In this document: in pieces, positions 758 to 60,666 of the stretch
Numbering within the stretch: position 1 is the first letter of the stretch
How the letters are laid out: each line of letters opens with the position of its first letter
Source of the DNA: Bacilli bacterium
GTDB taxonomy: Bacteria > Bacillota_I > Bacilli_A > RFN20 > CAG-826
Direction of reading: 5' to 3'
Assembly (NCBI GenBank): GCA_024695235.1
Contig: JAILIP010000002.1
Location: 7,093 to 71,092, forward strand
Length of the DNA stretch: 64,000 nt
Translations under genes and position numbers: made by a program
The notes under the pieces: generated by a model
What the model saw: the letters and a program-made list of their open reading frames with translations, nothing else
Told to the model about the DNA's origin: nothing
Databases searched by the model: none

Positions 758-809
758 TCGAAACTAAGAACAACACAAAAACAATTAAACAATAAAGATA
801 TATTGATTT

Positions 810-1367: not shown

Positions 1368-1422
1368 TCTTTGTTAAAGCACAGACATTTAATATAGTTA
1401 TCACCAGTGATTAACTAATGAA

Positions 1423-2903: not shown

Positions 2904-2948
2904 TAAATTATATTAATAATTCCCTAACTAAAAGTTATAATATTTCCA

Positions 2949-5012: not shown

Positions 5013-5025
5013 CATTTAAAAAATT

Positions 5026-5051
5026 ATGGAAGCAATGCTTCCATTTTTTTG
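5026..5051 (+). terminator. rho-independent terminator
   Basis: atggaagc-aa-tgcttccat hairpin followed by TTTTTTT. Confidence 0.75.
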
Positions 5052-5105
5052 ACGAATGACACACTTTGGAATTTTTTGACTAGATAAAGGGTAGGAGGAT
5101 ATTTT
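5052..5105 (+). promoter_or_regulatory. promoter/RBS module, copy A (ATGACAcac...TAGATAaagGGTAGGAGG)
   Basis: Near-identical to the sequences at 7321-7371 and 8621-8673. Confidence 0.5.
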
Positions 5106-5870
5106 ATGAACGAATTCCAAATTGTTAAATATGAAGATAACGTCGTTGAATTAGATGTTAATTTTTCAACGGAAGATAATACTGTTTGGTTAACACTAAG
5201 CGAGATGTGCAAATTGTACAAGAAGGACAAGTCTGTTATATGGAGACAAATCAATAATATTTATGTTGAAAACAATGCCTTAAAAGGGGCAACTTATGCA
5301 AAATTTGCAACAGTTCAAACTGAAGGAAATAGAGTGATTAATAGGCTTGTTGATCATTATAAATTAGATATCGTTTTTGAGGTTGGTAAACGAATTAAAT
5401 CTAAGATAGCATCAGCCTTCTATAATTGGTGTCAAAATATACTAAATGAGTTAAAAAACGAACATAAAAGTAACTTTGTTACTTTCCACTCAAATGGACT
5501 AGTACTTGATGCATGTGTTTCTCCTGAAGAAAACACAGTCTACCTAACACAAAATGCAATGGCGGACTTATTTGAAACAAATCAACCAAATATTTCATAT
5601 CATATCAAGAGCATTATTGAAGAAGGAGAACTTAAAAATGAGGCAACTCATAAAAAATTTTTATTAGTTCAAATTGAGGGTGATAGGGAAGTAAAACGAG
5701 AGATGAGTTTTTATAATCTGGATATGATTCTTTCTGTTGGATATCGCGTGAAATCTAAGAACGCAATCCTTTTTAGAAGATGGGCAAGTGATGTTTTAAA
5801 AAGATATTTAGTCAAAGGGTACGCAATTGATGAAAAAAGAACACTTGTCGCACATTACATGAAAGAATAA
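5106..5870 (+). CDS. RhuM-family protein (two tandem RhuM N-domains, no C-terminal region)
   Basis: NTVYLTQNAMADLF...ISYHIKSIIEEGEL...YNLDMILSVGYRVKSKNAILFRRWASDVLKRYLVKGYAIDEKR matches the Virulence_RhuM family signature; the first half is a degenerate repeat of the same domain. Confidence 0.8.
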   Translation: MNEFQIVKYEDNVVELDVNFSTEDNTVWLTLSEMCKLYKKDKSVIWRQINNIYVENNALKGATYAKFATVQTEGNRVINRLVDHYKLDIVFEVGKRIKSKIASAFYNWCQNILNELKNEHKSNFVTFHSNGLVLDACVSPEENTVYLTQNAMADLFETNQPNISYHIKSIIEEGELKNEATHKKFLLVQIEGDREVKREMSFYNLDMILSVGYRVKSKNAILFRRWASDVLKRYLVKGYAIDEKRTLVAHYMKE

Positions 5871-5914
5871 AAAATTATCTTCCTTAATATCAATTAACAA
5901 AAGATAATATTACT

Positions 5915-6598
5915 ATGAAAAATTATCTCGTTACTTTCCTAAAGGGTATATTAGCAGGACTCGCTATTGGACTAGGTGGATTCTTATATATCCTTATGAC
6001 TTTTCTTTTTAGTGGTGATAACGCTGAACTAGGAAAGATATTTGGATCCATATTATTTTCAGTAGGTCTATTCCTTGTATGTACATTTTCTCTATCCTTA
6101 TATACCGGAAAGATAGGTCTAGTGTACGAAGAAAAACAAAGTAAAGAATTTTATATATCCTTACCTATCATGCTTATCGGTAATGCGATAGGAGCATTTG
6201 CGTTTGGATATATATGCTTTTTCATCTTTAGAAGTAGCGATGTATATTTCTCAGCATTAGCCACTGCAAATGCCAGATTACAGTTTAATGATGTATTGGA
6301 TTATCTTACTACTGCTATTAAAGCATTCTTATGTGGACTATGTGTCTATCTTGCAGTTAAATCATTTTCACTCAATAGACTTAAACCATTAGGTATTACC
6401 TTACTAGTATTCTTTGTATTCGTATTTGTCTATTGTGGTTTCCAACACTGTATCGCTAATATGTTCTATTTTGGAATGGCAAATACAATGAGTTGGTATA
6501 CACTCATAAATCTACTAATTGTTATCTTATTTAACTCCTTGGGACCTATTGTTGGAGTGAAACTAGTAAAACTAATTCAAAGTAATTATAGTAAGTAG
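5915..6598 (+). CDS. formate/nitrite transporter (FNT) family channel
   Basis: GILAGLAIGLGG, LYTGK (LFTGN-like) and HCIANMFY (HSIANMF signature); 6 TM. Confidence 0.6.
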   Translation: MKNYLVTFLKGILAGLAIGLGGFLYILMTFLFSGDNAELGKIFGSILFSVGLFLVCTFSLSLYTGKIGLVYEEKQSKEFYISLPIMLIGNAIGAFAFGYICFFIFRSSDVYFSALATANARLQFNDVLDYLTTAIKAFLCGLCVYLAVKSFSLNRLKPLGITLLVFFVFVFVYCGFQHCIANMFYFGMANTMSWYTLINLLIVILFNSLGPIVGVKLVKLIQSNYSK

Positions 6599-7267
6599 CA
6601 TTCCTATAACTATTAAAGCCTGAGCGATTAGATATGTTGACATAACTAAGACCTCGGCTTTTTTAATTGGCTTATAGAATTTGTTGTATACAAGGATAGA
6701 ATCAGATATCACGAACATAAATCCACCGATGGCTGTGATAAATAAATATAGTGGTATTGCCGTGGTTGATAAAATCATCACTAAGAAGTTAAAAAATAGG
6801 ATTGAGAAATACCCCATCATTGTGTATTGTTCAAACTTATTTTGAGTGAGTCTTTTGGCAATTAAATTTGTGGATGCTAAATAGAATAAAACTGCCACAA
6901 CAAAAGCGATGAGATATATCCACCATTGAAGGTGATTTCCGACGATGAGTATCAAAGATACTAAATATAAGATATGACTTGCTGCAAAAGAGAATGATCC
7001 AATATAAAATGGCATCTTCTTTTTAGACACCAAAAGTAAGTCTCCGAGCATTGAGAAGAACACTGCAATGTAAAGGATTGGCTTTGTCGGAATAGTGACT
7101 ATTACAAACACCATCAAAAAGAGAAGACAGAAAGTCTTTTCTTTACGACGAAGTTCATCTTTGTCTAAAGCCGCTAATGCAACTTGGATAATCGAAGCAA
7201 CTAAGAATAATCCGAAAAAGACATAACCTACGATAGGAATGTTTTTAAGAACATCAACAAAGTTCAT
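6572..7267 (-). CDS. YhhN-family (lysoplasmalogenase-like) membrane protein
   Basis: Polytopic membrane protein with a GDLLL motif; overlaps the FNT gene 3' end convergently. Confidence 0.4.
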   Translation of the reverse strand: MNFVDVLKNIPIVGYVFFGLFLVASIIQVALAALDKDELRRKEKTFCLLFLMVFVIVTIPTKPILYIAVFFSMLGDLLLVSKKKMPFYIGSFSFAASHILYLVSLILIVGNHLQWWIYLIAFVVAVLFYLASTNLIAKRLTQNKFEQYTMMGYFSILFFNFLVMILSTTAIPLYLFITAIGGFMFVISDSILVYNKFYKPIKKAEVLVMSTYLIAQALIVIGMLLTIITLN

Positions 7268-7299
7268 AACTAAGTTAATTTTATCTCACTTTCTAAATT

Positions 7300-7371
7300 T
7301 AGTCTCAAATTTTAACGAATTTTGACACACTTTTGATATTTTGGACTAGATAAAGTGTAGGAGGATATTTT
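7300..7371 (+). promoter_or_regulatory. promoter/RBS module, copy B (TTGACAcac...TAGATAaagtGTAGGAGG), including the 33-bp direct repeat at 7300-7332
   Basis: 7300-7332 is identical to 8603-8635; the promoter part resembles copies A and C. Confidence 0.55.
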
Positions 7372-8601
7372 ATGAAATATTCAAAACTAATATCAAATTT
7401 AGAAAAAGTCATTTTCACTGATGGTGATTTTCAGATGGAAATCGATGTAGAAAAAGGGACAAACGAGCCATGGCTATCATTGAATGAGCTGGCTTATTTC
7501 TATTCTAAAGATAAGTCTGATATTACTAGGCATTTAAACCAACGTGGTACAAAAATGCACCTAGCAGTTGCAAAAAATGCACCACCTAGAAGTGATGGTA
7601 AAGTGTACAAAACTTCTTGTTATAATCTTGAAACAATTATCGAAATCGGCTATCGAGTTAATTCGAAAAGAGGACAAAAACTAAAGGCGTTTTTAGATAA
7701 TTGTTTTGATTCAAATCTTATCGAAATTTCTAATGAAATTATTATATATAATAACGGAGATGTATCAATTGATGTTAGAATCTCTCCGCAAGAAAACACT
7801 GTATGGGTATCTCAAGACAAGATTGCCAAGCTATATGATTCATCTAAACAAGTAGTTTCTTATCACATTAAAAATATTCTTGATGATGAGGAACTCGATC
7901 GTTCAGTAGTCAAAGAAATTTTGACAACTGGATTAGATGGAAAAACGTACTCGATTTCTTACTACAATTTGGACATGGTCATTTCTATTGGTTATCGCAT
8001 AAATTCAAAGAAGGGAATTGCTTTTAGAAAATGGGCTGCATCCACACTTAAAGAGTATTTGATGAAAGGATATTTGGTTAATAAAGAAAGAACTCTTATT
8101 ACAAGTGAGAACTATCTTAATCTCGTAAACAAAGTTGATTCTCTTGAAAACAGAATGGACATCATTGAAGAAAAACAAAACCATCTTTTCATAGAGGATA
8201 AAGTCATATATGAGGGAACAGTATTTGATGCAATAGTGTTAATTAACAAACTCATTGAGATATCACACAGTTCCATTGTGCTTATCGATCCGTATATAGA
8301 TGTAAGAACTCTTGATGCCTTTAAAAGCAAAGAAAGAAATATAATGCTTTTCATCATCACATCGAGCAACAACAGACTCAGTGAAAAAGAGAAGCAAGCC
8401 TTCATAAAGCAATATGGTAGACTAAATGTTTTCTTGGATGATAGATATCATGATAGGTACTTAATCTTAGACAAAACATACTTTTACCATCTTGGCACTT
8501 CTATTAACTACCTTGGCAAACATTTCTCTCAAATCACCTTAGTGGTAGACGAAGACATCAAAGATGTTTTGCACCAAAGAATTAGGAACTATTTCCCTTG
8601 A
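7372..8601 (+). CDS. RhuM-family protein (two N-domains plus the about 150-aa C-terminal region)
   Basis: NTVWVSQDKIAKLYDSSKQVVSYHIKNILDDEEL...YNLDMVISIGYRINSKKGIAFRKWAASTLKEYLMKGYLVNKER. Confidence 0.8.
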   Translation: MKYSKLISNLEKVIFTDGDFQMEIDVEKGTNEPWLSLNELAYFYSKDKSDITRHLNQRGTKMHLAVAKNAPPRSDGKVYKTSCYNLETIIEIGYRVNSKRGQKLKAFLDNCFDSNLIEISNEIIIYNNGDVSIDVRISPQENTVWVSQDKIAKLYDSSKQVVSYHIKNILDDEELDRSVVKEILTTGLDGKTYSISYYNLDMVISIGYRINSKKGIAFRKWAASTLKEYLMKGYLVNKERTLITSENYLNLVNKVDSLENRMDIIEEKQNHLFIEDKVIYEGTVFDAIVLINKLIEISHSSIVLIDPYIDVRTLDAFKSKERNIMLFIITSSNNRLSEKEKQAFIKQYGRLNVFLDDRYHDRYLILDKTYFYHLGTSINYLGKHFSQITLVVDEDIKDVLHQRIRNYFP

Positions 8602-10813: not shown

Positions 10814-10872
10814 ATAATAAGAGACAGCCAGTAGGCTGTTTTCTTTAAATTTTTGTGATACAATCTAGCTAC

Positions 10873-11544
10873 ATGAAAAAGAGTGCAAAATTAGCAATCG
10901 TCATATCTAGTGCAGTAGTATCTGCTTTAGCGTTAGCAGTAGCAATTCCATTCACTGTTTTGGGTATAAAAACCGCTAGCATGAAAGCCGATTATTCATA
11001 CCTCAAAAACGATGAAAAATATTCAGAAAAAGTCGAAGCAAGTGGACTAGACTTAGTAACTCAACACATTTCATGTGGATACGCTACTATAGAGATGCTT
11101 TCTTCATATTATGGAGAGAAAATTGACGAGGATTCTTTGAGTGAAAAAAATCATGGAAAAATTACCACATCATCATCAAAAGGATTTGAAAAAGAAATCA
11201 ATGCTTCCATCCAAAACCAACACTTCGAAATGCATAGCTACCTTCAACATGATGTGATGCTAAAAGAGATATATGTTTCACTCAAAAACAACAACCCAGT
11301 TGCTATTGAATGGGCCGCTAAATATGAGAATGAATGGACACTACATTACTCAGTTGTGAGTGCTCTAGATTTAGTTAATGATAACGTTACAATATTCAAT
11401 CCTTATGGCTACATCGAGAACATCACAATTGATGAATTTGTGAGCAGAACTAGCTTCAAAGCATACAAGAATATTCCAGGGTTTTTAAACTTCGGTTTTG
11501 CCTATGGTGCATTTGATAAAAATGCAATTTTCTACGCAATTTAG
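10873..11544 (+). CDS. membrane-anchored papain-like (C39-like) cysteine peptidase domain protein
   Basis: N-terminal TM; HISCGYATIEMLSSYYG (Cys nucleophile context) and a later His; start set at MKKSAK directly after an extended -10 (TGTGATACAAT), so the mRNA may be leaderless. Confidence 0.4.
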   Translation: MKKSAKLAIVISSAVVSALALAVAIPFTVLGIKTASMKADYSYLKNDEKYSEKVEASGLDLVTQHISCGYATIEMLSSYYGEKIDEDSLSEKNHGKITTSSSKGFEKEINASIQNQHFEMHSYLQHDVMLKEIYVSLKNNNPVAIEWAAKYENEWTLHYSVVSALDLVNDNVTIFNPYGYIENITIDEFVSRTSFKAYKNIPGFLNFGFAYGAFDKNAIFYAI

Positions 11545-11628: not shown

Positions 11629-11958
11629 TTTGACAAAGGTAATAGCGTTTTTGACAATGTCAGAATTGGTTCAAGCCCTACCGAACCAGGTCTTTTCAAT
11701 AAAACCACAACACTTGAAGTTGAAGGTCACTATTGGGTTAAAACTTCTTGGACAGGCGTTCTCCATAGCAACATATTTTCATTTAGTCAGAGTGGCATTG
11801 TCAGACAAATGGATTTAGGTGAAGGTCGTAGCCAATTTTACATTGAAGGTCTTACCACGGGAACTGTAACAGTAACGGCTACTTTGGTAGTAGGCTATGA
11901 TAGACGAATAATCACTGTTACTACAGATCCAATAACAGTAAATCCAAAAAGCAGTTAG
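11629..11958 (+). pseudogene. orphan C-terminal fragment of a Big_2 (bacterial Ig-like) surface protein, no start codon
   Basis: 109-codon open frame straight after the terminator, no ATG/RBS; ...LEVEGHYWVKTSW...GTVTVTATLVVGYDRRIITVTTDPITVN resembles the Big_2 repeats of the 51233..56146 protein. Confidence 0.35.
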
Positions 11959-24503: not shown

Positions 24504-24535
24504 AGCGACCGAAGTCGCTATTTCTTTTATTTTTT
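24504..24535. terminator. bidirectional terminator
   Basis: gcgac-cgaa-gtcgc hairpin flanked by A-run and T-run. Confidence 0.6.
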
Positions 24536-25624
24536 ATTCTTCACAGGTTTAACATCAACTGTTTTAACTTGCTTGGATTGATTTTGTTGTGGTGCACTTC
24601 CGTAGTCTGGACGAAGTGACTTCATTGATAACCACATGATACGTACACCAAGAAGTAATGGGAAGATGATTTGTGAGAATGATTTAATCAAGAATCCTAA
24701 ACCACTTGTGAGAATGGCTGGAGTGAGTGATGCCCAGCATGCAATCCACATACATTCGAAGATTGTAAAGATTCTGTATGGATTGTGTTTTCCTCTTGTG
24801 AGGATGAAGATCATAAGTCCCATGAAGATGACTAGACCAGCATTGATGCCAAACATGAGAAGTGTTGTCTTCCATGTGAGTTGTCCTCTTTGATATAGAT
24901 ATGCGTCATCAAAGAATTTGATCCAGTTAGCCCAGACACCATCAACATATGCTGCGTATGTTTGAGCATTTACATTTAAGGAGTTAACAATATTGCCATC
25001 GACTGAGACATTATCAAGATCGTTAAGTTTGAAGCCAACTTCACAATGCTTATAGTCTCCAACAAGGCTACCGACTTGGGCGCCTGACATGTTGTAGACA
25101 ATTGAATAGACGTCTTTGCTACCAAAGATGATGAAGGAGACTGTTCTTTTTTCAAAACCAATGAATTCACCATCGCTCCAAACAGGTTTGTTCTTGGTGA
25201 TTTCTTCAATGTCTACAGAAGTGAAGTTTTGAATGTAGTAGACTTCTAAATCAATTTGTCCAAGTTCAGAGTAATGTTGATAGACGTGATAGTCCTTGTG
25301 ATCAGTATATGTATAGGTGTTATCCCATGTTTCTTGATCAAGTGAGAGATATTTTTGTCCATCTTGTTCTTTAACTTCCATGATGAGACCTTTTTCGTTA
25401 ATATCTTCAACGAAACGTTGTGTTCCAACTTCTACTCCATAGGAGTTAGATGAGACAAAGCTTGATCCTTTCTTGGTAATTGTTTGAACAAAAACAGGTA
25501 TTACGGCAAGTACCATTGAAAGGAAGAACATTATTAAAGCAATCCAAAATGGATGCTTACGACCGCCTTCGACACAGGCGTCATTATTGATTAGTGATTT
25601 GAGAATTAATTTGAATCTTTTCAT
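24527..25624 (-). CDS. membrane protein (N-terminal TM, extracytoplasmic domain, C-terminal multi-TM, K-rich tail)
   Basis: Start set at the internal ATG (MKRFKLILK) with an AAAGGT RBS; the ORF-track start (GTG at 25711) would overlap the tmRNA promoter. Confidence 0.45.
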   Translation of the reverse strand: MKRFKLILKSLINNDACVEGGRKHPFWIALIMFFLSMVLAVIPVFVQTITKKGSSFVSSNSYGVEVGTQRFVEDINEKGLIMEVKEQDGQKYLSLDQETWDNTYTYTDHKDYHVYQHYSELGQIDLEVYYIQNFTSVDIEEITKNKPVWSDGEFIGFEKRTVSFIIFGSKDVYSIVYNMSGAQVGSLVGDYKHCEVGFKLNDLDNVSVDGNIVNSLNVNAQTYAAYVDGVWANWIKFFDDAYLYQRGQLTWKTTLLMFGINAGLVIFMGLMIFILTRGKHNPYRIFTIFECMWIACWASLTPAILTSGLGFLIKSFSQIIFPLLLGVRIMWLSMKSLRPDYGSAPQQNQSKQVKTVDVKPVKNKK

Positions 25625-25722
25625 AATTTTTACCTTTAATAGCATATACAAAATGTTATTTGTTTTCAAATAATAATTTTGAACTATCGATTTAATAATG
25701 CTATAATCCACATAATCATCAT

Positions 25723-41063: not shown

Positions 41064-42407
41064 ATGAAACCGTCATTCAAGGAACTGTTCACAAAAGTAT
41101 ATGTTTCATATCAAGGTATGGATCCTCATTTTGTGTACTATCTTGATGAAGATGATTACCAAATCAAAAGAATTGAGAAGAAACGCTTCTTAGATTTTGA
41201 ACGTAACTTCATGAGCAAAGACTTTAGAAAAGATGGTAATTCAGATGAAAATCTCATGATGAATCTTGCCTTATCAAATGGTAAATACATTCTTCCTAAA
41301 ACATTCTCTGATAAAGAGTTTGATGCTTACTATGAAGAATCTAATAAAGATGTTCCGCTTGAATCAATTAAGGACATGATTCTTACACGTATTATTCAAG
41401 TATGGTTGGACTTCCATAACCTATACACGATAGAAGCAGACGAAACGTATTACCAAGAAGTTTTCTATTTCTTAGCGATGGTGTTCAATGCTCATCTATT
41501 CGATTTCTTCCCAAAGAACAATATTCTTCATTATCAAGATGGTGAAGGACAAAACTTCTATTACGTATTCAATCGCAAAGACTTATCATTCACATTAACT
41601 GATAACTATCTTGGGTTATCAAATATGCAATGTATGATTTCCTCGCCGAATGCATTTGATAAGAATATCCTTAGAACACTTAGAAAGTCATTTGTTATTA
41701 CATTTAAAAAAGAAAACAGGTGCACGCAGGACACGATATCTTTATATGAAAAATATGAATCCAAGGATGTTGATTTCGGAGCGTTTGTCCCAAAGATAAC
41801 GTGCTATGAAGACGGTCTAATTACTGAAAATGGATTAAGAATGTCTCAAGCTCAAATCCTTGCATTAATGCTTTCTTCTTTAGTAACTCTTGTGAACACT
41901 CTTGTCGAACAAAAGATATATCCTGAACCAGGTAAATGTTATATCTACAAGAACAACTCTCATGAAGTAGGCATTGATCCAGATGTTGATCTAATTTCAA
42001 AATCACCATTTATTAATTTAATGCCATATCATCAAGCATGCTTTGGAGTTATTCAAAACAAAATAAATGCGGTGGAGCTTAAACTCCGCGTGATGTCATT
42101 TAAAAAGATATCCTCAAGAGCAAAAGCCGCCGTATATGAATGTTTAATTGTAAATCATGAAACAGGCGAATTACTTGAAAGAGTAGAAGTAAAAGCCAGT
42201 AAAACCACGATTAATGATTTAATGCAACAACTCATCGAATATGCATATCGTAATGGCTGGGCAGAAAGAACTATTGTTGATAGTCCGCTTGATTTTCATC
42301 TTGCTAATGTCCTCTCAGGAGGCAAGACAAGAATCGAATATGATGAATTACTTCAAATCAATAGATTAGATGAAGATGAGGATGATTCAGTAAATATCTC
42401 AGCATAA
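41064..42407 (+). CDS. hypothetical protein (447 aa)
   Basis: Long ORF, no recognisable motif. Confidence 0.45.
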   Translation: MKPSFKELFTKVYVSYQGMDPHFVYYLDEDDYQIKRIEKKRFLDFERNFMSKDFRKDGNSDENLMMNLALSNGKYILPKTFSDKEFDAYYEESNKDVPLESIKDMILTRIIQVWLDFHNLYTIEADETYYQEVFYFLAMVFNAHLFDFFPKNNILHYQDGEGQNFYYVFNRKDLSFTLTDNYLGLSNMQCMISSPNAFDKNILRTLRKSFVITFKKENRCTQDTISLYEKYESKDVDFGAFVPKITCYEDGLITENGLRMSQAQILALMLSSLVTLVNTLVEQKIYPEPGKCYIYKNNSHEVGIDPDVDLISKSPFINLMPYHQACFGVIQNKINAVELKLRVMSFKKISSRAKAAVYECLIVNHETGELLERVEVKASKTTINDLMQQLIEYAYRNGWAERTIVDSPLDFHLANVLSGGKTRIEYDELLQINRLDEDEDDSVNISA

Positions 42408-48664: not shown

Positions 48665-49336
48665 ATGAAATTTACTAAGTTATTAACTCTTATATCTGCC
48701 GCACTTCTTTTAGTGAGTTGTAGCAACGAATCAAATAAGAAAAACTCTGATGGTTCACAATGCGAAATTGCTCAAGAAGTGACTATTCAAACAAACAATG
48801 ATTCCTGGAAATCTGAGTTTTCAGGTGGCACAGGATTTGTTGATGCAGATATGACGGATAACTCCAAAAATAGAGGTAGACTCTTAACTTATTTTTCATC
48901 CGCTCATGTTGAATCACTCGAATGTAGTGGTGCAATCACAAGTCTTAACTATGGAGAAATGGATCCTAGTGATAACAAGAAACAACTCGGTGTTGGTTTA
49001 GCTATTGGAGGAGGTTCTAAAGTTGGAACATTCACTTTGAACTTTGAAGTTGCTCCGATAAGCGTGACTGTGTATGCATTATCCTATTACAAAAAATATA
49101 AGACATACGAAGGCGATCCAAATAATGGATTATCAAAAGATAAAAATAGTCAATTAATTATTACTGCCGGAACAGACTTTGAAACATTAGATTTAAGAGA
49201 TACAAGCGAGATGGAAGTTAAGACAGTTTCACTAACTGATATCGAATCAAAACAATTAGTGTTTCAAAATAAAAGTGCAACTGCTGGAAGAGTGATAATT
49301 GATAAGATTGTGTTCACATATCCAGCAAGTTGCTAA
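48665..49336 (+). CDS. lipoprotein with a beta-rich domain shared with the large surface proteins
   Basis: Lipobox LLVSCSN; C-terminal region resembles the C-terminal domains of the 13239 and 51233 proteins. Confidence 0.55.
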   Translation: MKFTKLLTLISAALLLVSCSNESNKKNSDGSQCEIAQEVTIQTNNDSWKSEFSGGTGFVDADMTDNSKNRGRLLTYFSSAHVESLECSGAITSLNYGEMDPSDNKKQLGVGLAIGGGSKVGTFTLNFEVAPISVTVYALSYYKKYKTYEGDPNNGLSKDKNSQLIITAGTDFETLDLRDTSEMEVKTVSLTDIESKQLVFQNKSATAGRVIIDKIVFTYPASC

Positions 49337-51106: not shown

Positions 51107-51129
51107 AGGTCCCTATGGGACCTTTTTTC
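51107..51129 (+). terminator. rho-independent terminator after eno
   Basis: aggtccc-tat-gggacct hairpin followed by TTTTTT. Confidence 0.8.
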
Positions 51130-51232
51130 TTTTCCAATATTTCCACATGCACGTGTGTTTATTTTACGAGCGTATTCGCTTGTTTATTTTTCGTACGTCG
51201 CGTATGATGTACATATCTCTCGAGGTTAGATT

Positions 51233-54200
51233 ATGAGTAAAAATTTATCAAAACATGGATTAATATTCTTCGCTTCGGTTGCTCTTATTGGGGTGACAGT
51301 AGCGGCCGCAAGTGTAGCCGGTGGCAAAGGCTTACTTGGTGCGAGTGGTCTATTAGGCGGTAATACTTCTGATTATACTGTCACATTAGATGACTCAAAC
51401 GCTTACGTTAATAACGAATCAATGCCAAAACACGTTACCACATCATCTGGTAGCTGGGAAATTTATTTCAACTACACAAATGCTTCGGCATTAAGTGGTG
51501 GTCACGTCACACTTGCTGATGGTGGTACTTTAGTAAACACACGTTTGATCAAGTCAATTGATTATCTTAAGTTCCATTTCGACGGAAATCTCCAATTCCG
51601 CACATCTTATGATGGCAATACTTGGTCAGAATATGCCCAAGCCAAAGATAACGAGATTTATAACCTCCCATCTAATCCATATTTTGTCGAATTACAAGCA
51701 AATGGTGGTTCGGTAAGTCTTTACTCCGCTATATATCAATATACTTGCGTTGATAATCCTGCAGCCGAAGGATACGAACATCAAGAAGATGACATCATCA
51801 CTTGGGAAAAAGTAAAAACTGTAAGTGATTTTGCTGTCGGAGATGAAGTAATCCTAACAGCCGGAGATTCATCGATTGCATATGCAATGTCCACAACCCA
51901 AAACTACAACAATAGAAACGGTGTTTTAGGTGAAAAGAACGGAGATTTATTTGTTCCAACAGATGATACCGCAATTTTTGAAGTTGAAAGTGGCACTACA
52001 AGTGGATCGTTTGCACTTAATAATATTAACGGAGATAGTACTGGCTATATTTATGCGGCTGGTTCGACCGATTCAACTGTTACAAACCAAAACTACTTAA
52101 AGACCCAATCAACAAAAGATGATTTTGCATCATTCTCTATTTCTATTTCTAGTGGAGTTGCTACGATTGAGTCTCTTGGCGGTTCTACTAGTAGATATAT
52201 GAGATACAATCCTAACACTGGTACCAACAGTGATGGAATTCCAAGATTCTCTTTCTATCGCTCAGGAAGTTCTATTACAACCGAAATTACAATCTATAAA
52301 AAAGTGACCACTCCTGGTGAGTCGTATTACACATATGATACACCTAACGATATAGTTGGTTTCTCAGCTATAGATAACAATGCATCTAGCTATGACACCA
52401 ACAGTATTTATTCAGAAGATAAAGGATTAGTAGTTAAAGCTATTTACCAAAATGGTACACAAACAGCTTTAGCTGCTAGTGATTATACATATAAAGTTTC
52501 TACCGACAGTGCTGGTTTAAATGTTATTGACCACACTAAGGCGTTTGGAACTGTAGGCATTTATTTTGTAACAGTTTCGTACAAAGATTTCATTCCTTCA
52601 GTTTTACAACTTAATGTTGGTGTACCTGATCCAGTATTGACAGGCATTACAGTCGATAGTGATACTTTAACATTTAATACAGCGCAAAAACTTGGTGATT
52701 ATACAAACGGAATTACCGTAAATCTTACATATGATCAACCGAATGCAAATGTTGATAATGTTCCATATAGTCAATTCAGCAGTTACAATCTTTCCTTGTC
52801 GTTAATAAGCCCAAGTAGTGTTGCTTATGACATTTCAACCGCGTTTGGTACATCAGGCAACTGGGTTATTAAGGTAACATCTAATAGTGATTCTACTGTC
52901 TTTGGACAACTTGGTATTACAGTTGAAGCAATTCCTGTACAATCCATTTCCTTAGATGAATCATCTGTCACAATTGAACAAGGTGATACACTTCAACTAT
53001 TAGCAACTGTTTTACCAGACAATGCAACTAACAAAAACATCGAATGGTCAGTTCAAAATGATGATCCAAAAGATTGTGTTACTGTAAACGCAAATGGTCT
53101 TGTTACCGGTTCTGCTATTGGCACAGCAACTGTTGTTGCGACTGCTCAAGATGGCAGCACGAAGTTTGGCAGCTGTGATGTTACTGTTATAGCTAAAACA
53201 CAACCAATTGATGAAGGCACATTTACATATGTTGAGCATGCCAACTTACAGGTAGGTTCCTATGTTGTTATTGCTAGCAGCGCTACTTCTGGTAGTGCGT
53301 ACGCAATTGGCGAACAACGAACATCTAATAGACTTGCTGTTTCTACAACAATTACTAGCAATCAAACAATAGAAAGAACAAGTTCTAGCACATTCTATGC
53401 ATTCAGAGTTGAAGAAGGCACAATAAGCGGAACAGTTTCGTTCTATGATACCGTTAACGAAGGATATCTTTATGCTTCAAGCAGCTCTTCAAATGAACTC
53501 AAAGTTGAATCAACAAAATCTGCTAATAGCAGTTTTGCACTTGGTGGTTCTACAAGCATAAACGCTTCTGGTAGTAACTCAAGGAATTCGATGAGGTTTA
53601 ATGAAAGTGCATCGACGAAACTTTTCTCGTGCTATGCATCAAATAACACAACAATGGGTGGCGTTTATTTCTTTGCTAAAGCAGGACAAACCATTTATCC
53701 TACAGGTGTTGAAATTTCAGGTGATTCTACAGTTGGTGTAAATGCTACTACTCAATTAACTGCTACTGTTACACCTACAAATGCAACTGATAAAACAGTT
53801 TCTTGGTCAAGTAGCAACGATGATATTGCAACAGTTTCATCTTCTGGTCTTGTTACCGGTGTCGCACTTGGCGGTCCAGTGACAATCACCGCTTCAGTTG
53901 CTGGCGAGAACGGAACTATTTCAGATACTCATGAAATATCTGTAGTTACAATACCTGTTTCCTCTGTTACTCTTGATAAAAATAACTTATCAATCAAAGT
54001 TGGGGGGTCGGACACATTAAGTGCATCTGTCCTTCCTGCTGATGCCACAAACAAGGAAGTGACATGGAGCATTGTTGAAGAAAATCCATGCATTTCTGTT
54101 AGTAATGGCACAGTTACTGGTGACTCCGAAGGAACGGCAACGGTCAAAGTAACATCTAATGCTGATAATACTAAATATGATACATGTCTAGTCACTGTTA

Positions 54201-56146
54201 CGGCTGCTAGTGCGGGTGAAGAAACTACAACATACATGTTTAATAGCAAATCATGGGGTGCAACACCTGCCAACTGGTCATCTGGCAAGGATGGTAATCA
54301 ATATGACTCTAGTAAAGGTGGTATTCAAGTTACTACAGGCGCATCTGGCGCAAACGGAACATCCCCAATTTCGTTTGAAAGTGTTCAATCTGTCACAGTC
54401 AATTATTGTACTAACGCTTCTAATGGTGAAGGAAGTATCACTGTAAGCGTTGGCAATACAGAAATCGCCACACAAAGCGTAACTAAAACCGGTGGTGCTA
54501 CAGGCAGAGATATGGTGTTTGAATCTGATGGTTCATTATCAGGCAAAATCAACATTTCTGTCGAATGTACAACCAATAGTATCTATATTATTTCGTGTTC
54601 CATTACTACAGGCACTCCTGAACCTATAGATCCAACAGGTGTTTATGTTTCAAATATGGATATCACTCCTGGCAGCAAAAAGACTCCTACACCTGAATAC
54701 ACTCCAAGCAACGCAAATCAAAATTTAGGAATCACGTGGAGTAAAGTAAGTGGATCAACCAATTTAAGCATTGATGCAAGCACCGGTGAAGTAGATGCTA
54801 CAAACGCTGTTGCAGGAGATAGTGCTATCTTTAAAGCGGCGTTAAATCAAGTTGCCGGCGATAAGTCTTGTAACTTCACCGTAACTGTTACTGAAACTGT
54901 ATTGCCAAAATGGACAATCATGGTATACATGTGTGGTTCCGACTTAGAAAGTGGCGGACAGACGACAGCAAGCAAAGCATCAGGTTATGCATCAAGTGAT
55001 ATTGACGAAATGCTCAAAGCATCAGGTCAAACAGAAGATACAAATATCATTATTGAGACTGGTGGTGCAAAATGCTGGTCTTCAAAATATAATTTTGGTT
55101 ATTCAATATCTAAAGATAAACTTCAAAGACATCATATTTCAAATAAAACATTGAATCTTGATAGTACTCTTGATACATATACATCAATGGGTCAAAAATC
55201 CACATTCCAAAGCTTTATTGAATGGGGCCTCACAGAATATCCTGCTGAAAAAACTGGTGTTATTCTTTGGAACCATGGTGGTGCTATGGAAGGATGCTGC
55301 TATGACGAAAAAAGTAGTAGTGATTCAATTTCAAATAGCGAAGTCAAATCCGCTTTAAGCAGTGCCTTTAGCAATACTGGAAGAACACAAAAACTAGAGT
55401 GGATTGGTTATGATTGCTGCTTAATGTCTGTTCAAGATATTGCCGAATTCAATAGCAATTATTTCAACTATATGGTTGCTTCTGAAGAATCTGAGGCTGG
55501 CTCCGGATGGGATTATGATACATGGCTACCAAAAGTGTTCAACAATTCCGCTACTACAACAATTTTGAAGTCTATTGTTGATAGTTTCGTTGCTGAAACA
55601 CAATCAATCTATTGGTATGATCAATCATTAAGTTATTATTCACTTGCCAATATGGCTGCTTATAAGACAGCGTTTGAAAACTTTGCCGCAGCTGCTCAAA
55701 GTGTGTTTAATTCTTATGGTAAAGCGAACCTCAAATCATTCATGAAGGGTGTAAAATCATTCGGAAATAGTTTAACAACCACCGAAGAGTATCAAGCAGA
55801 TTCGGATTATTATGACCAATACGGATATACTTGGGACGCTGATTTCGGATACTATGGAGATTGGGAAAACGGTATTGAGCGATTTGGTTCGTTTGACGTT
55901 ATGGATTTTATGACAAAACTTAAAGAAAATAGTACATTTAAAAATGCATTAGGCTCATATATCTCTGCAATTGAAACAGCATTTGCTAATTTAAATGTTT
56001 ACATCCAGACAAGCGGTAGTGTTGCTGCAGGATCTAATGGTTTAGCATTTATTTACTCTTATGATTCTTATACCGATTATTACTACAAGCAATCCGAGAC
56101 GAACTTTAGCAATTGGTTTGAACTAAATACTGATCTTGGCGCATAG
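51233..56146 (+). CDS. giant surface protein: signal anchor, multiple Big_2 domains, C-terminal clostripain-like (peptidase C11) domain
   Basis: N-terminal hydrophobic anchor; at least 4 Big_2 repeats (e.g. IQSISLDESSVTIEQGDTLQLLATVLPDNATNKNIEWS...GTATVVATAQDGS); C11 motifs WTIMVYMCGSDLE, ILWNHGGAMEGCCYDE (His), IGYDCCLMSVQDIAEF (Cys), MVASEESEAGSGWDY. Confidence 0.8.
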   Translation: MSKNLSKHGLIFFASVALIGVTVAAASVAGGKGLLGASGLLGGNTSDYTVTLDDSNAYVNNESMPKHVTTSSGSWEIYFNYTNASALSGGHVTLADGGTLVNTRLIKSIDYLKFHFDGNLQFRTSYDGNTWSEYAQAKDNEIYNLPSNPYFVELQANGGSVSLYSAIYQYTCVDNPAAEGYEHQEDDIITWEKVKTVSDFAVGDEVILTAGDSSIAYAMSTTQNYNNRNGVLGEKNGDLFVPTDDTAIFEVESGTTSGSFALNNINGDSTGYIYAAGSTDSTVTNQNYLKTQSTKDDFASFSISISSGVATIESLGGSTSRYMRYNPNTGTNSDGIPRFSFYRSGSSITTEITIYKKVTTPGESYYTYDTPNDIVGFSAIDNNASSYDTNSIYSEDKGLVVKAIYQNGTQTALAASDYTYKVSTDSAGLNVIDHTKAFGTVGIYFVTVSYKDFIPSVLQLNVGVPDPVLTGITVDSDTLTFNTAQKLGDYTNGITVNLTYDQPNANVDNVPYSQFSSYNLSLSLISPSSVAYDISTAFGTSGNWVIKVTSNSDSTVFGQLGITVEAIPVQSISLDESSVTIEQGDTLQLLATVLPDNATNKNIEWSVQNDDPKDCVTVNANGLVTGSAIGTATVVATAQDGSTKFGSCDVTVIAKTQPIDEGTFTYVEHANLQVGSYVVIASSATSGSAYAIGEQRTSNRLAVSTTITSNQTIERTSSSTFYAFRVEEGTISGTVSFYDTVNEGYLYASSSSSNELKVESTKSANSSFALGGSTSINASGSNSRNSMRFNESASTKLFSCYASNNTTMGGVYFFAKAGQTIYPTGVEISGDSTVGVNATTQLTATVTPTNATDKTVSWSSSNDDIATVSSSGLVTGVALGGPVTITASVAGENGTISDTHEISVVTIPVSSVTLDKNNLSIKVGGSDTLSASVLPADATNKEVTWSIVEENPCISVSNGTVTGDSEGTATVKVTSNADNTKYDTCLVTVTAASAGEETTTYMFNSKSWGATPANWSSGKDGNQYDSSKGGIQVTTGASGANGTSPISFESVQSVTVNYCTNASNGEGSITVSVGNTEIATQSVTKTGGATGRDMVFESDGSLSGKINISVECTTNSIYIISCSITTGTPEPIDPTGVYVSNMDITPGSKKTPTPEYTPSNANQNLGITWSKVSGSTNLSIDASTGEVDATNAVAGDSAIFKAALNQVAGDKSCNFTVTVTETVLPKWTIMVYMCGSDLESGGQTTASKASGYASSDIDEMLKASGQTEDTNIIIETGGAKCWSSKYNFGYSISKDKLQRHHISNKTLNLDSTLDTYTSMGQKSTFQSFIEWGLTEYPAEKTGVILWNHGGAMEGCCYDEKSSSDSISNSEVKSALSSAFSNTGRTQKLEWIGYDCCLMSVQDIAEFNSNYFNYMVASEESEAGSGWDYDTWLPKVFNNSATTTILKSIVDSFVAETQSIYWYDQSLSYYSLANMAAYKTAFENFAAAAQSVFNSYGKANLKSFMKGVKSFGNSLTTTEEYQADSDYYDQYGYTWDADFGYYGDWENGIERFGSFDVMDFMTKLKENSTFKNALGSYISAIETAFANLNVYIQTSGSVAAGSNGLAFIYSYDSYTDYYYKQSETNFSNWFELNTDLGA

Positions 56147-56163: not shown

Positions 56164-56200
56164 AGAGGATGTCTTGTGGCATCCTCTTTAATTTGATATT
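56164..56200 (+). terminator. rho-independent terminator
   Basis: agaggatg-tcttgtgg-catcctct 8-bp hairpin followed by a T-rich tract. Confidence 0.65.
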
Positions 56201-56228: not shown

Positions 56229-57104
56229 ATGAATAAGAAAGTCGTTAATGTTCCATATTTAGGTTATAAAACCCATTGCATTATTTGTGGTGATCTATCA
56301 AAAGGCACACCTCTAATTTTGATGCATGGCGGACCTGGTGGATGCATCGAAAGATATGAGGTTCTTTCTAAGCTTGCTGATAGAGGAATTCCTTGTATTT
56401 TTTATGATCAACTCGGTAGCGGATACTCTCGTGTTAGTAAAGGGCATCTTGAATTATGGAATTATGATACATTCATGAATGAACTTGAAAATATCATCAA
56501 ATATTTCAAATTAGATAAGTATCATCTTTTAGGACATTCTTGGGGAGGAATGCTTGCTTTAGAATATCTTGCTAAAAGAGAACACAAAGGACTTGATAAA
56601 GTAATCTTATTTTCTACTCTTCCATCTACAAGAATATGGAACGAAGAACATCTTAAGATGATTGAATCATATCCAAAAGAAGAAAAAGAATCTTTGATTA
56701 ACGAACTTAATGGCAAAGACTTTGATAAAAAGATACATAAAAAAGCTCTTAAGCGTTTCTATGATGAACATGTTGGAAAGAAATCAGATCGAAAATATAT
56801 TTCTTTAAGGAAACGTTTCCCTAAAACAAATAAAGAGATTTATAACTACATGTGGGGACCATCTGAATTATTTGGAACAGGCTCATTGAAAGATTGGAAT
56901 AGAGAAGATGATTTACATCTAATCAAAAATAAAACGCTTATCCTTTCTGGCAAATACGATGAATCAACACCTAGAATAAACGAACTTATGAATCAAAAAA
57001 TACCCAACTCTAAGTGGGTACTTCTTGAGCATTCTCATCATGGAGGTTATAACGAAGAACCTGATAAAGTGCTAGATGAGATATCTAAATTCTTAAAAGA
57101 TTAA
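56229..57104 (+). CDS. pip: proline iminopeptidase (S33 alpha/beta hydrolase)
   Basis: LILMHGGPGG, nucleophile elbow GHSWGG; the ORF-track ATG at 56169 lies inside the upstream terminator hairpin, so the start was moved to MNKKVV. Confidence 0.8.
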   Translation: MNKKVVNVPYLGYKTHCIICGDLSKGTPLILMHGGPGGCIERYEVLSKLADRGIPCIFYDQLGSGYSRVSKGHLELWNYDTFMNELENIIKYFKLDKYHLLGHSWGGMLALEYLAKREHKGLDKVILFSTLPSTRIWNEEHLKMIESYPKEEKESLINELNGKDFDKKIHKKALKRFYDEHVGKKSDRKYISLRKRFPKTNKEIYNYMWGPSELFGTGSLKDWNREDDLHLIKNKTLILSGKYDESTPRINELMNQKIPNSKWVLLEHSHHGGYNEEPDKVLDEISKFLKD

Positions 57105-59337: not shown

Positions 59338-60666
59338 ATGAACGCTATTGATAAAAAACACTTATCAGCAGTCCTTGCTGAATATAAAAAAGATAAAGCA
59401 TCCACAGTTGCTCGTCATGCTCTTAGCAACGGAGAAATTGCTAATGTCGCTTTAGATAAAGACAGCGTCAAAGATATGGATTTCAATTTTGACATCAATA
59501 TTAAGACGATGACTGCAACAAACCAAAAACAATCAGGTAGATGCTGGATATTTGCCGCAACAAATGTCCTTCGTGAAATGATTGGAAAGAAGAAAAATAT
59601 TCCTTTCTTTGAGTTATCACAAAGCTATATCGCTTTCTATGACAAGCTTGAAAAGCTTAATTATGTCTTAGAAGCACATATTGAACTTATCGATAAAGAT
59701 TACGATGACCGTACACTTCAATTCATTCTTCAAAGCGGAATTGGTGATGGTGGTCAATGGGATATGTTTGTAAATGTCGTTAAAAAATACGGCGTTTGCC
59801 CAAAAAATGTCTATCCTGAAACATATACATCAAGCTCAACAAGATACATTAATTCACTCGCTAACGCTGAATTAAGAAAATTCGCTTCTGAGGCACATGC
59901 TTTATATAAAAAAGAAGGTCTTGAAGCAGTTAGAAAACTTAAAGATAGCTATCTTGATAGATTCTATCGTGCACTTGTTTCTTGCTATGGTCTACCTCCA
60001 GAAAAATTTGACTTCGAATACACAGATAAAGACGAAGTCTACCACATTGAAAAAGGCTACACTCCAGAAAGCTTCTATAAAGAATACGTTGGAGATATGC
60101 TTGATGAGTATGTAAGTGTCATTAACGCCCCAACAAAAGATAAACCATTCAATAAGAGCTTCACAGTTAAGTACCTTGGCAATGTAGCAGGTGGAAAGAA
60201 AGTCACTCACCTTAACTTACCAATGGAAAGAATGAAAGAACTTATTCTTGCTCAACTTAAAGATGGTCAAATTGTTTGGTTTGGTAGTGATGTTGCCTTC
60301 TATGGTGATAGACCAAAAGGTATTTGGGATGATAACGATTTTGATTTCAAATCACTTCTTGATTTAGACTATAAGATGGACAAAGGTGAATCGCTTGATT
60401 ATAGAGAATCACAAATGAATCACGCGATGTGTATTACCGGTGTTGCCCTAAAAGATGGTGTTCCATCCAAGTGGAAAATTGAAAACTCTTGGGGTGAAGA
60501 TGCTGGTAAAAAAGGATACTATATCATGTCCTCTTCTTGGTTTGATCAATACACATATCAAGCTGTCATTAATAAAAAATATCTTACCAAAGAAGAACTC
60601 GCAGCATATAATGCTGAACCAATTGAACTTAAACCATGGGATCCAATGGGATCACTTGCAAAATAA
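59338..60666 (+). CDS. pepC: aminopeptidase C (bleomycin hydrolase, C1B)
   Basis: QKQSGRCWIFAATNVLRE catalytic Cys region, C-terminal ...ENSWGED. Confidence 0.88.
   Translation: MNAIDKKHLSAVLAEYKKDKASTVARHALSNGEIANVALDKDSVKDMDFNFDINIKTMTATNQKQSGRCWIFAATNVLREMIGKKKNIPFFELSQSYIAFYDKLEKLNYVLEAHIELIDKDYDDRTLQFILQSGIGDGGQWDMFVNVVKKYGVCPKNVYPETYTSSSTRYINSLANAELRKFASEAHALYKKEGLEAVRKLKDSYLDRFYRALVSCYGLPPEKFDFEYTDKDEVYHIEKGYTPESFYKEYVGDMLDEYVSVINAPTKDKPFNKSFTVKYLGNVAGGKKVTHLNLPMERMKELILAQLKDGQIVWFGSDVAFYGDRPKGIWDDNDFDFKSLLDLDYKMDKGESLDYRESQMNHAMCITGVALKDGVPSKWKIENSWGEDAGKKGYYIMSSSWFDQYTYQAVINKKYLTKEELAAYNAEPIELKPWDPMGSLAK

Follow-up and report, generated by a model that had tools for sequence, protein, structure and literature searches.

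A predicted membrane-tethered clostripain-family protease on a long modular stalk in an Anaeroplasma-like bacterium of the rumen or hindgut

Introduction

Anaeroplasma-like mollicutes of the rumen and hindgut are common and almost unstudied, and these wall-less cells with reduced genomes have to feed in a habitat that is rich in protein and dense with microbes. The protease gene described here lies in a 64,000-nucleotide stretch of DNA, the window, in which an open reading frame at 51233..56146 on the plus strand encodes 1637 amino acids, with exactly the coordinates and length given in an earlier sequence-only reading. The same protein is deposited in NCBI as MCR5332464.1 under the name "Ig-like domain-containing protein", which conceals its protease function. 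Literature searches on Peptidase_C11 with Big_2 or on Anaeroplasma with clostripain found no papers.

The protein starts with a hydrophobic segment, the only one it has, continues through four Big_2 domains, three of them canonical and the fourth divergent, and ends in a Peptidase_C11 domain. The first ~1,200 residues (~75% of the protein) form a stalk, and the last ~400 residues form the protease. It is a real C11 enzyme in an undescribed architecture, and a fairly ordinary one, since it belongs to a large module-shuffling surface-protease family of Anaeroplasma-like bacteria. The best explanation, to which a probability of about 0.6 is given, is a membrane-tethered, predicted Arg/Lys-specific C11 endopeptidase used for extracellular protein scavenging.

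The Catalytic Domain

The catalytic domain with its C-terminal subdomain extends over 54947..56146 on the plus strand (aa 1239-1637, followed by the stop codon), as recognized by Pfam, AF2, Foldseek, and profile matching. The sequence-only reading had placed a clostripain-type protease here and had named a Pfam scan and structure prediction as checks. The scan returned Peptidase_C11 (PF03415) over aa 1248-1625 with an E-value of 1.1e-33 and 117.7 bits, where the Pfam gathering cut-off is 25.8 bits. The AF2 model of the domain (pTM 0.84) recovered a predicted C11 fold, and a low-confidence Tyr/Asp-rich insert occupies ~aa 1512-1551. In a Foldseek search of the PDB, the best 10 matches were all C11 proteases, with CHAT domains and caspases after them; clostripain was matched at E 6.6e-17 and TM 0.67. 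A domain profile also matched clostripain (9cip) at E 5e-26, with nearly the full domain covered, C-terminal subdomain included. These sequence and fold matches are far beyond chance.

Both catalytic motifs quoted earlier are present. ILWNHGG contains His1348 (codon at 55274..55276, plus strand, within WNHGG), and IGYDCCLM is encoded around the Asp1394-Cys1395-Cys1396 codons (55412..55420, plus strand), of which the second Cys is catalytic and Asp1394 is the S1 specificity residue; most relatives have YDACLM. Residue-level alignment places His1348, Asp1394, and Cys1396 on His176, Asp229, and Cys231 of clostripain, and Asp1394 and Cys1396 on Asp177 and Cys179 of PmC11, whose dyad is His133/Cys179. 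The His/Cys dyad is thus intact in its C11 context, matching clostripain residue for residue, and all three residues are unchanged in 16/16 homologues at 33-47% identity. The roles of His176, Cys231, and Asp229 in clostripain (PMC11296011) and of Asp177 and Cys179 in PmC11 (PMC4850288) have been described, and the acidic S1 residue, which stands two residues ahead of the catalytic Cys, confers specificity for Arg or Lys at P1 (PMC4850288, PMC11296011). Few parts of the protein are conserved as well as the C11 domain (36-55% identity), and this conservation, together with the invariant His, Cys, and S1 Asp, points to purifying selection on catalysis. We infer that the domain is catalytically competent, and it is predicted to cleave after Arg or Lys.

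Clostripain of Hathewaya (Clostridium) histolyticum, the type enzyme of MEROPS C11 (PDB 9CIP), has the same family, fold, dyad, and P1-determining Asp as the query protein, although the two are only ~19% identical. It is a 526-aa secreted single-domain proenzyme from which a nonapeptide linker (R181...R190) is excised (PMC4850288, PMC11296011), whereas in the query the C11 domain is C-terminal to the ~1,200-aa stalk and the linker is absent, with Glu1353 at the position of R181. The gut Bacteroidales enzymes PmC11 (3UWS), 6N9J, 6NAG ("iotapain"), 6MZO, and 5DYN have the same fold and dyad (E 1e-15 to 5e-6). Of these, 6N9J and 6NAG are secreted C11 enzymes of B. thetaiotaomicron, 6MZO is a P. 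distasonis zymogen, and 5DYN is a B. fragilis cysteine protease. The Bacteroidales enzymes come from gut commensals and are secreted or lipoprotein-anchored, and the short paralogues in the query clade are likewise lipoproteins; however, the Bacteroidales enzymes are ~350-400 aa long and lack Ig-like arrays, unlike the query.

PmC11 requires intramolecular cleavage at Lys147 (PMC4850288). Near that position the query has K1360, and a Lys is found there in 7/16 members, while the R181-aligned position is Arg in 6/16. No basic residue is conserved among the 16 members in the His-to-Cys loop, which holds the self-activation sites R181/R190 of clostripain and K147 of PmC11. An activation site of either type was considered and not confirmed.

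The Modular Stalk

All modules are encoded on the plus strand in the order N, A, two Ig-like domains, Big_2, A, Big_2, Big_2, X, and a Big_2-like domain. Pfam detected Big_2 (PF02368) in three stretches (139 bits, E 4.8e-41, cut-off 22.8 bits). An HMM built from the Big_2 domains of the query's own protease family matched aa 579-655 (3e-29), 833-917 (5e-26), 920-999 (1e-26), and 1143-1221 (1.2e-4). Domain a (aa 567-655; 52931..53197) and domains b and c (aa 833-918 and 919-1003; 53729..54241) were found by both methods. Of the "at least four Big_2-type repeats" claimed earlier, three are therefore canonical, and the fourth, domain d (aa 1144-1238; 54662..54946), stands only as a divergent Big_2-like copy below Pfam detection. 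Ahead of domain a, a middle region (aa 366-566; 52328..52930) consists of two conserved, probably Ig-like domains; its C-terminal part is weakly Big_2-like, with a partial family-HMM match at aa 541-577 (E 8e-7).

Searches of modules N, A, X, and the middle region against Pfam and NCBIfam returned no family. Module N (aa 46-180; 51368..51772) is a conserved beta-sandwich restricted to the N-terminus of long-form C11 proteins and to the clade of the query. It was modelled at pLDDT 85-97 as a weakly CBM-like jelly-roll, and its best fold match, CBM29, was not significant (E 0.02). Module A is present as two beta-rich copies, A1 (aa 181-365; 51773..52327), which is fast-evolving and poorly modelled in structure prediction, and A2 (aa 656-832; 53198..53728), which was placed by profile search and whose profile matches A1 at E 1e-10. 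A homologue search with N plus A1 returned two fragments only, and a word-indexed search with the A-module alignment returned nothing. The family is visible only by exhaustive HMMER search, which revealed at least 5,857 sequence clusters and thereby its large size; module A is also found on secreted nucleases and on C10 and M6 proteases of other gut bacteria. Modules A and N have no Pfam model, and both are worth defining as domain families.

Module X (aa 1004-1143; 54242..54661) is an optional and swappable beta-rich module. It is 75% identical to module X of a distant long C11 protein (L004) and 50% identical to module X of an S8 protease (L056), whereas the segment that aligns with it in the nearest orthologue is only 16% identical. 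The variable A and X modules, and also N, would be candidate binding modules.

Export and Membrane Anchoring

The N-terminal segment (aa 1-45; 51233..51367, plus strand) consists of a K-rich n-region, a hydrophobic stretch, and a Gly-rich linker, and it is a putative uncleaved signal-anchor. The anchor or signal of the sequence-only reading was recovered as a single segment. By the Kyte-Doolittle criterion (19-residue window, > 1.6), the sole hydrophobic stretch lies within aa 5-35, and its core is a run of 23 uncharged residues, GLIFFASVALIGVTVAAASVAGG. The same scan of all 1637 residues found no C-terminal anchor. A bacterial lipoprotein identity was considered for the query and rejected, because no lipobox Cys stands at the signal end and the first Cys does not occur before residue 172.

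Comparison with relatives provides further evidence on anchoring. In 33 long-form relatives, the N-terminal uncharged stretch is 18-26 residues long (median 22), with a linker of ~16 residues after it. The adjacent S8 proteases have a shorter h-region (median 15) and a C-terminal TM with a K/R tail, and short C11 paralogues of the relatives have lipoboxes. These hydrophobic lengths, C-terminal TMs, and lipoboxes suggest a separate membrane tether for each protease class. On this comparative evidence, the query is most likely held on the membrane by an uncleaved N-terminal signal-anchor rather than released. The earlier claim of a cell-surface tethered protease is therefore kept for a C-terminal C11 domain on a long Ig-like and beta-rich stalk, and its tethering is favoured.

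Full secretion of the same enzyme is rather unlikely, although it is the strongest of the rival readings. It would require a cleavable signal peptide, and the released product would be a soluble 170-kDa protease that docks on substrates through modules A, X, and N. Small residues follow the hydrophobic core of the query (SVA|GG), and sites of this type could permit signal peptidase cleavage and release. The proteins L019 (from A. bactoclasticum, 665 aa), L025, and L028 lack an anchor and carry a classical signal peptide with an A-x-A-like site, and clostripain is a secreted enzyme, as are the C11 proteases of B. thetaiotaomicron. However, the long-form stretch is consistently of TM length (median 22 compared with 15 in the cleaved-type signals nearby), with a flexible linker after it, and all other protease classes in these wall-less genomes carry a lipobox or a C-terminal TM.

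Family Distribution and Genomic Context

The C11 family is expanded in rumen and hindgut Anaeroplasma-like MAGs and in A. bactoclasticum, with 97 genes at 78 loci; the corresponding number of S8 genes is ~20. Relatives are almost all from rumen or hindgut Bacilli/Acholeplasmatales MAGs, with the addition of Anaeroplasma bactoclasticum ATCC 27112, whose homologue L019 has the short layout A-Big_2-C11. Members are either long and N-terminally anchored or short lipoproteins, and they often stand beside C-terminally anchored S8 proteases. The protease of the query is 44-47% identical to that of L002/P0002, whereas enolase is 96% identical and the other neighbours are 73-92% identical. Module histories are discordant, and the modules are mosaic. 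The modules evolve far faster than the neighbouring genes, a surface-type pattern of evolution. The query belongs to a surface degradome that extends across the clade, in which C11, S8, and M6-like enzymes share and exchange accessory modules. Dozens of C11 genes, three types of membrane tether, pairing with S8 proteases, and module exchange together represent a heavy investment in surface proteolysis.

A terminator-like hairpin with a T-run (51107..51123, plus strand) follows the enolase gene and divides it from the protease gene. A ribosome-binding site, GAGG, was read from the sequence at 51222..51225 (plus strand), and 7 nt separate it from the start codon (ATG, 51233). Right after the stop codon, a hairpin with a 10-bp stem (56164..56187, plus strand) may be a terminator or attenuator. 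The protease gene is apparently a single-gene, monocistronic unit, and the earlier proposal of an adhesin-protease "organelle" is overstated. No tandem repeats or phase-variation tracts were found in or before the gene.

Gene order is conserved among relatives as enolase, C11, (S8), proline iminopeptidase, ADA, and PepC. In the window, the syntenic genes include a proline iminopeptidase-family hydrolase (S33) at 56229..57104 (plus strand; TIGR01250, 215.6 bits, cut-off 167.65) and a PepC-like aminopeptidase (Peptidase_C1_2, 537 bits) at 59338..60666 (plus strand). S8-Big_2 proteases lie directly downstream of the C11 gene in many relatives; this partner is absent from the window and from the closest relative. 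Housekeeping genes (enolase, ADA, and GpmA-like) surround the syntenic peptidase genes, whose closeness to the protease gene may therefore be a coincidence. The sequence-only reading had suggested a possible processing of host or self surface proteins, and the genomic context is more in line with proteolysis for nutrition.

Proposed Function

From these data, a nutritional role can be proposed. The query would be exported as a clostripain-family (MEROPS C11, clan CD) cysteine endopeptidase cleaving after Arg or Lys, and its signal-anchor would fix it on the outer membrane face of a wall-less Anaeroplasma-like rumen or hindgut mollicute. The stalk would put the protease at its distal tip and leave the variable A and X modules free for binding. 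Extracellular proteins from feed, host, or microbial debris would be cut into peptides by the C11 protease, and the final digestion of these would fall to peptidases such as the proline iminopeptidase and PepC encoded by the syntenic genes.

The cell-envelope proteinases of Gram-positive bacteria, such as lactocepin PrtP and the streptococcal C5a peptidase ScpA, are S8 subtilases on long beta-sandwich stalks. The query may be their functional analogue, as a large surface endopeptidase with Ig/Fn3-like spacers that acts in extracellular breakdown ahead of PepC and proline iminopeptidase, and S8-Big_2 proteases immediately adjoin its orthologues. However, the query is a clan CD cysteine protease with its catalytic domain at the C-terminal distal end, whereas the cell-envelope proteinases are S8 serine proteases with an N-terminal catalytic domain. 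Its putative anchor is an N-terminal hydrophobic segment, not LPXTG/sortase or a C-terminal TM, in a host without a cell wall. A lactocepin-like S8 identity was rejected, because Pfam found no Peptidase_S8 match in the query.

It is doubtful that the anaeroplasma C11 and S8 proteases are instead predatory or scavenging bacteriolytic factors that attack microbial envelope proteins and recognize prey through modules A, X, and N. Rumen anaeroplasmas are described as proteolytic and bacteriolytic organisms that recycle dead cells (PMC8941964), and the family is present in A. bactoclasticum, which is lytic; A. abactoclasticum and A. varium are non-lytic. The occurrence of module A on secreted nucleases and C10/M6 proteases of other gut bacteria, the weakly CBM-like module N, and a module diversification that fits changing targets are also consistent with such a role. 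However, a protease alone does not lyse peptidoglycan-walled cells, Pfam and NCBIfam found no muramidase or amidase domain in the protein, and the tie to the lytic phenotype is purely correlative. The related proposal, that the long-known "bacterioclastic"/proteolytic phenotype of rumen anaeroplasmas has its molecular basis in the expanded C11 surface proteases and their S8 partners, is a long shot. If it were true, Arg/Lys proteases mounted at the tip of long stalks, with fast-swapping A, X, and N modules that recognize microbial surfaces, would let a mollicute dismantle and feed on other microbes, and L019 would be a testable candidate for the diffusible factor. Since the cultured strain ATCC 27112 carries this short homologue, activity, location, and any link to bacteriolysis can be tested there.

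A host-directed virulence or immune-evasion factor is very unlikely. The Ig-like modules would bind mucosa, and immunoglobulins, mucins, or antimicrobial peptides would be cleaved, with a purpose that may be likened to that of mycoplasma Ig proteases or fragipain-type C11 enzymes. The query is a fast-evolving mosaic surface protein, and host immunoglobulins are a common target of mollicutes. An action at the host-microbiome interface is discussed for the C11 enzymes of gut Bacteroides (bioRxiv 10.1101/522870). However, no host-binding domain was identified in the protein, the family is concentrated in MAGs from the herbivore rumen and hindgut lumen, and the neighbouring genes are peptide-catabolic. 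A non-catalytic adhesin, with a degenerate C11 domain or one confined to self-processing or shedding, would fit the dominance of the stalk and the lack of a conserved autoactivation site but is scarcely credible, and a pseudo-protease is rejected on the invariant catalytic residues and the conservation of the domain.

Proposed Relatives Within the Window

BLASTP and phmmer, run with the full-length protein and with ten of its segments on every ORF of the window, turned up neither a paralogue nor a second C11; the sole cross-match was of Big_2 domain a to ORF13239 (E 5e-4). A beta-rich module had been proposed to be common to the query and the lipoproteins at 13239 and 48665. Each non-catalytic module was searched for with profile HMMs and with hhalign, and modules N, A1, A2, X, and the middle region did not match ORF48665, its syntenic family, or ORF13239. 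ORF48665 gave nothing (E > 0.4, probability < 1%), and ORF13239 gave only one marginal Ig-like stretch (E ~1e-4 to 7e-4). The likeness by eye of GGIQVTTGASG and GVGLAIGGGSK has no statistical support. A supposed orphan Big_2 fragment at 11629-11958 had no Pfam Big_2 match at E <= 1 and scored E 0.26-1.6 against the family Big_2 HMM; it is not demonstrably Big_2 and so gives no evidence of the family turnover that had been drawn from it. ORFs 13239 and 48665 do carry lipoboxes.

Gene and transcription unit

The protease gene is a transcription unit of its own. It occupies 51233..56146 on the + strand and encodes 1637 aa, as the sequence-only reading had placed it. A terminator-like hairpin (51107-51123) lies downstream of the enolase gene and upstream of the protease gene, a GAGG ribosome-binding site is found 7 nt 5' of the protease ATG, and a hairpin with a 10-bp stem (56164-56187) follows 3' of the stop codon. 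Called mechanically, the proline iminopeptidase ORF begins at ATG 56169, within this last hairpin; the true start is probably 56229, because matches to the family models begin with the Met there (MNKKVVNVPY...). The protease is identical to the public entry MCR5332464.1, "MAG: Ig-like domain-containing protein [Bacilli bacterium]", a name that overlooks the protease.

Domain architecture

Module order was defined from internal comparisons and a 16-sequence family alignment. An N-terminal hydrophobic segment with a linker (aa 1-45) is followed by module N (46-180), module A1 (181-365), the two conserved, probably Ig-like domains called 'mid' (366-566), Big_2a (567-655), module A2 (656-832), Big_2b (833-918), Big_2c (919-1003), module X (1004-1143), a divergent Big_2-like domain (1144-1238), and C11 (1239-1637). 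Pfam detects Big_2 in three stretches (139 bits) and, at aa 1248-1625, Peptidase_C11 (E 1.1e-33; 117.7 bits, threshold 25.8). None of its families matches module N, A, X, or 'mid', and no NCBIfam model covers the protein. The A2 family profile matches A1 at 1e-10, and the two are homologous. At least four Big_2-type repeats had been proposed from sequence, a count that holds provided the fourth is termed divergent: an HMM of the family's Big_2 domains recovers three copies strongly (1e-26 to 3e-29), a fourth at aa 1143-1221 (1.2e-4), and aa 541-577 in part. The central interpretation, an exported protein that joins a Big_2 array to a C11 protease, holds.

Catalytic domain

His1348 (WNHGG), Asp1394, and Cys1396 (YD-C-C-LM) are invariant in 16/16 homologues that are only 33-47% identical to the query; most relatives read YDACLM where the query has YDCCLM. 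In HMMER alignments to solved structures, these residues align with clostripain His176, Asp229, and Cys231, of which His176/Cys231 form the catalytic dyad and Asp229 is the P1-specificity residue (PMC11296011, PMC4850288). The AlphaFold2 model of aa 1225-1637 has a pTM of 0.84, and its best ten PDB matches are all C11 proteases, with clostripain 9CIP at the top (E 6.6e-17, TM 0.67) and B. thetaiotaomicron enzymes, a P. distasonis zymogen, a B. fragilis protease, and PmC11 among the others. CHAT domains and caspases, members of the same clan, come after them. The sequence-only reading had staked its case on a C11 hit and a His/Cys dyad, and on this point it stands because the C11 match, the aligned invariant dyad, and the C11-only top-ten structures supply both. 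The catalytic domain is an ordinary C11 family member of an already deposited protein.

An activation site of the clostripain or PmC11 type is not confirmed by the sequence. The clostripain nonapeptide linker is missing from the query; the clostripain cleavage site R181 aligns with Glu1353, a position that is Arg in 6/16 relatives; and K1360 lies near the position of PmC11 Lys147 and is Lys in only 7/16. The C-terminal subdomain also carries a Tyr/Asp-rich insert, …EEYQADSDYYDQYGYTWDADFGYYGDWENG… (window 55766-55885, aa about 1512-1551), which has pLDDT < 50 in the model and recurs only in the homologous proteins P0014 and P0015.

Relatives and probable membrane tether

When GTDB species genomes were searched with the family alignment, 133 relatives emerged, and 75 loci among them were retained. 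The relatives are nearly all gut MAGs (rumen, omasum, horse, rabbit, goat, yak, reindeer) labelled Bacilli, Bacillales, Erysipelotrichaceae, or Acholeplasmatales, and include the cultured rumen mollicute Anaeroplasma bactoclasticum ATCC 27112. The window is core chromosome of about 35% G+C with L9, DnaB, EF-G, ClpB-like protein, and enolase genes, and also encodes classical lipoproteins. The most fitting reading of the source organism is a wall-less gut bacterium resembling Anaeroplasma.

Module HMMs run against all ORFs found 97 C11 genes in 78 loci, in two main classes and always with the C11 domain at the C-terminus. Long forms (1330-1845 aa) share the layout of the query, and module N is restricted to this layout, always directly behind the N-terminal hydrophobic segment. 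In short forms (about 430-1070 aa), a clear lipobox opens the protein, and 0-6 Big_2 domains, accompanied or not by module A, precede the C11 domain. C11 paralogues are often neighbours, with up to four within 14 kb (locus L069), and M6-like lipoproteins with a 'mid' module also occur near them. In many genomes, the next gene after the long C11 gene encodes a Peptidase_S8-Big_2 protease, as at L001 14097-17849, L004 7562-11314, L017 12165-15554, L053 6765-11219, and L056 5244-9374; no such gene occurs in the window or in the closest relative, L002. The partner proteins carry a short signal peptide and, at the C-terminus, a TM helix plus K/R tail; some also contain A or X.

The query has its sole hydrophobic segment within aa 5-35 and no C-terminal anchor, and it is not a lipoprotein, since no Cys precedes residue 172. 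A released rather than tethered enzyme is one rival reading; an ordinary cleavable-looking signal peptide is found on the A-Big_2-C11 proteins of about 665 aa from A. bactoclasticum and two Acholeplasmatales MAGs. The uncharged N-terminal stretch measures 18-26 residues (median 22) in 33 long forms and 23 in the query, with a variable linker of about 16 residues before module N; the hydrophobic core of 18 neighbouring S8 proteases is shorter (median 15), and a TM helix and Lys/Arg tail end 16/16 complete S8 proteases. The S8 C-terminal helix, the short-form lipoboxes, and the TM-length stretch of the long forms together suggest that these wall-less cells tether each class of protease in a different way, for the long forms by what would be an uncleaved signal-anchor. 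This comparative argument favours tethering over release by roughly 2:1. Under a signal-anchor topology, the protease would sit at the distal tip, about 1,200 residues from the membrane.

Module shuffling and accessory modules

The protease is 44-47% identical to its nearest orthologue (P0002 at L002), whereas the same comparison gives 96% for enolase, 85-92% for the ABC exporters, and 73-76% for ADA and the hydrolase. Most of the divergence falls in A1, A2, and X (10-27% identity in most pairs), and a different module type takes the A1 or A2 position in some family members. The query X shares 75% identity with X of L004 (the N modules of the two share only about a third) and 50% with X of the L056 S8 protease. 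A1 is closest to an A module of the L053 S8 protease (41%), and the C11 domain to the short lipoprotein C11 of L008 (52%) and the A. bactoclasticum enzyme (50%). These module histories disagree, a pattern that indicates domain shuffling among surface protease genes.

Module N is confidently modelled as a beta-sandwich (pLDDT 85-97); its best PDB matches, jelly-roll carbohydrate-binding modules such as CBM29 and CBM32, are not significant (E >= 0.02). Module A (window 51773-52327 and 53198-53728) is modelled poorly. Its family is very large: exhaustive searching with HMMER recovers 5,857 cluster representatives at E <= 1e-3, of which 4,561 reach <= 1e-10, and a single protein can match in as many as six stretches and be as long as 4,599 aa (P0043-P0187 are among the members). 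In 45 of these proteins, no Pfam model covers module A itself, and the Pfam families found alongside it are Listeria-Bacteroides repeats, Big_2, Endonuclease_1, Peptidase_C10 with Inhibitor_I69, chitobiase-associated domains, Peptidase_M6, and BACON. It is found on secreted nucleases with Endonuclease_1, on proteases of the C10 and M6 families, and on proteins with Listeria-Bacteroides repeats. On this evidence, module A is an accessory of secreted hydrolases in general, plausibly a binding module.

Proposed function

Across orthologues at 36-47% protease identity, the locus keeps the order enolase, C11, (S8), proline iminopeptidase family (TIGR01250, above threshold), adenosine deaminase, and PepC-like Peptidase_C1_2. 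The best-supported reading is a putative surface-tethered Arg/Lys endopeptidase that initiates extracellular protein breakdown, which would serve a nutritionally dependent wall-less cell. In function it would parallel the Gram-positive S8 cell-envelope proteinases but, unlike them, carry a clan CD cysteine protease at its distal end. According to PMC8941964, rumen anaeroplasmas are proteolytic and bacteriolytic organisms that recycle dead cells. The other rivals, less probable still than release, are a protease directed at the host and a lytic factor directed at prey; like release, they differ from the surface endopeptidase in location or target, not in chemistry. The protein would be of greater interest if a link to anaeroplasma bacteriolysis were shown. 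The architecture and the clade-wide C11 expansion appear undescribed; a literature search on them found no paper.

Other ORFs of the window

ORF13239 and ORF48665, both genuine lipoproteins, had been said to share a module with the protease. None is detectable for ORF48665, and for ORF13239 the claim holds for one Ig-like stretch (aa about 372-497, E 1.5e-4 to 7e-4) and nothing else. ORF13239 aa 492-693 weakly resembles N-terminal parts of two short C11 lipoproteins of other genomes, at L073 and L056 (E 4e-5 and 1e-4); module sharing exists at clade level, but not with the query protein in the way proposed. ORF13239 (13239-15779) encodes an 846-aa lipoprotein with lipobox LGSC, three '...SPLT.AQA...' repeat units, and one Ig-like domain, and matches no Pfam or NCBIfam family. 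Small lipoproteins of about 223-253 aa lie just upstream of enolase in the window (48665-49336) and at L001 7799-8482, L002 7712-8428, L017 5755-6450, L030 5684-6367, and L065 3768-4526. This type diverges fast (40% identity vs 96% for enolase).

The supposed orphan Big_2 fragment at 11629-11958 has no Pfam Big_2 match, scores E 0.26-1.6 against the family's Big_2 domains, shows no significant similarity to anything tested, and says nothing about turnover of the C11/Big_2 family. This 109-codon open frame follows a Peptidase_C39_2-like ORF (10855-11544), in frame with it across three stop codons, and may be its decayed C-terminal extension. ORFs 24527-25711 (-) and 41064-42407 (+), of 394 and 447 aa, match no Pfam family at E <= 1e-5. 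Window 1-8601 is a low-GC islet (about 30%) of defence-like or mobile genes, with AbiH (1423-2526), DUF2779 (2949-5012), and two RhuM-family genes (5106-5870, 7372-8601).
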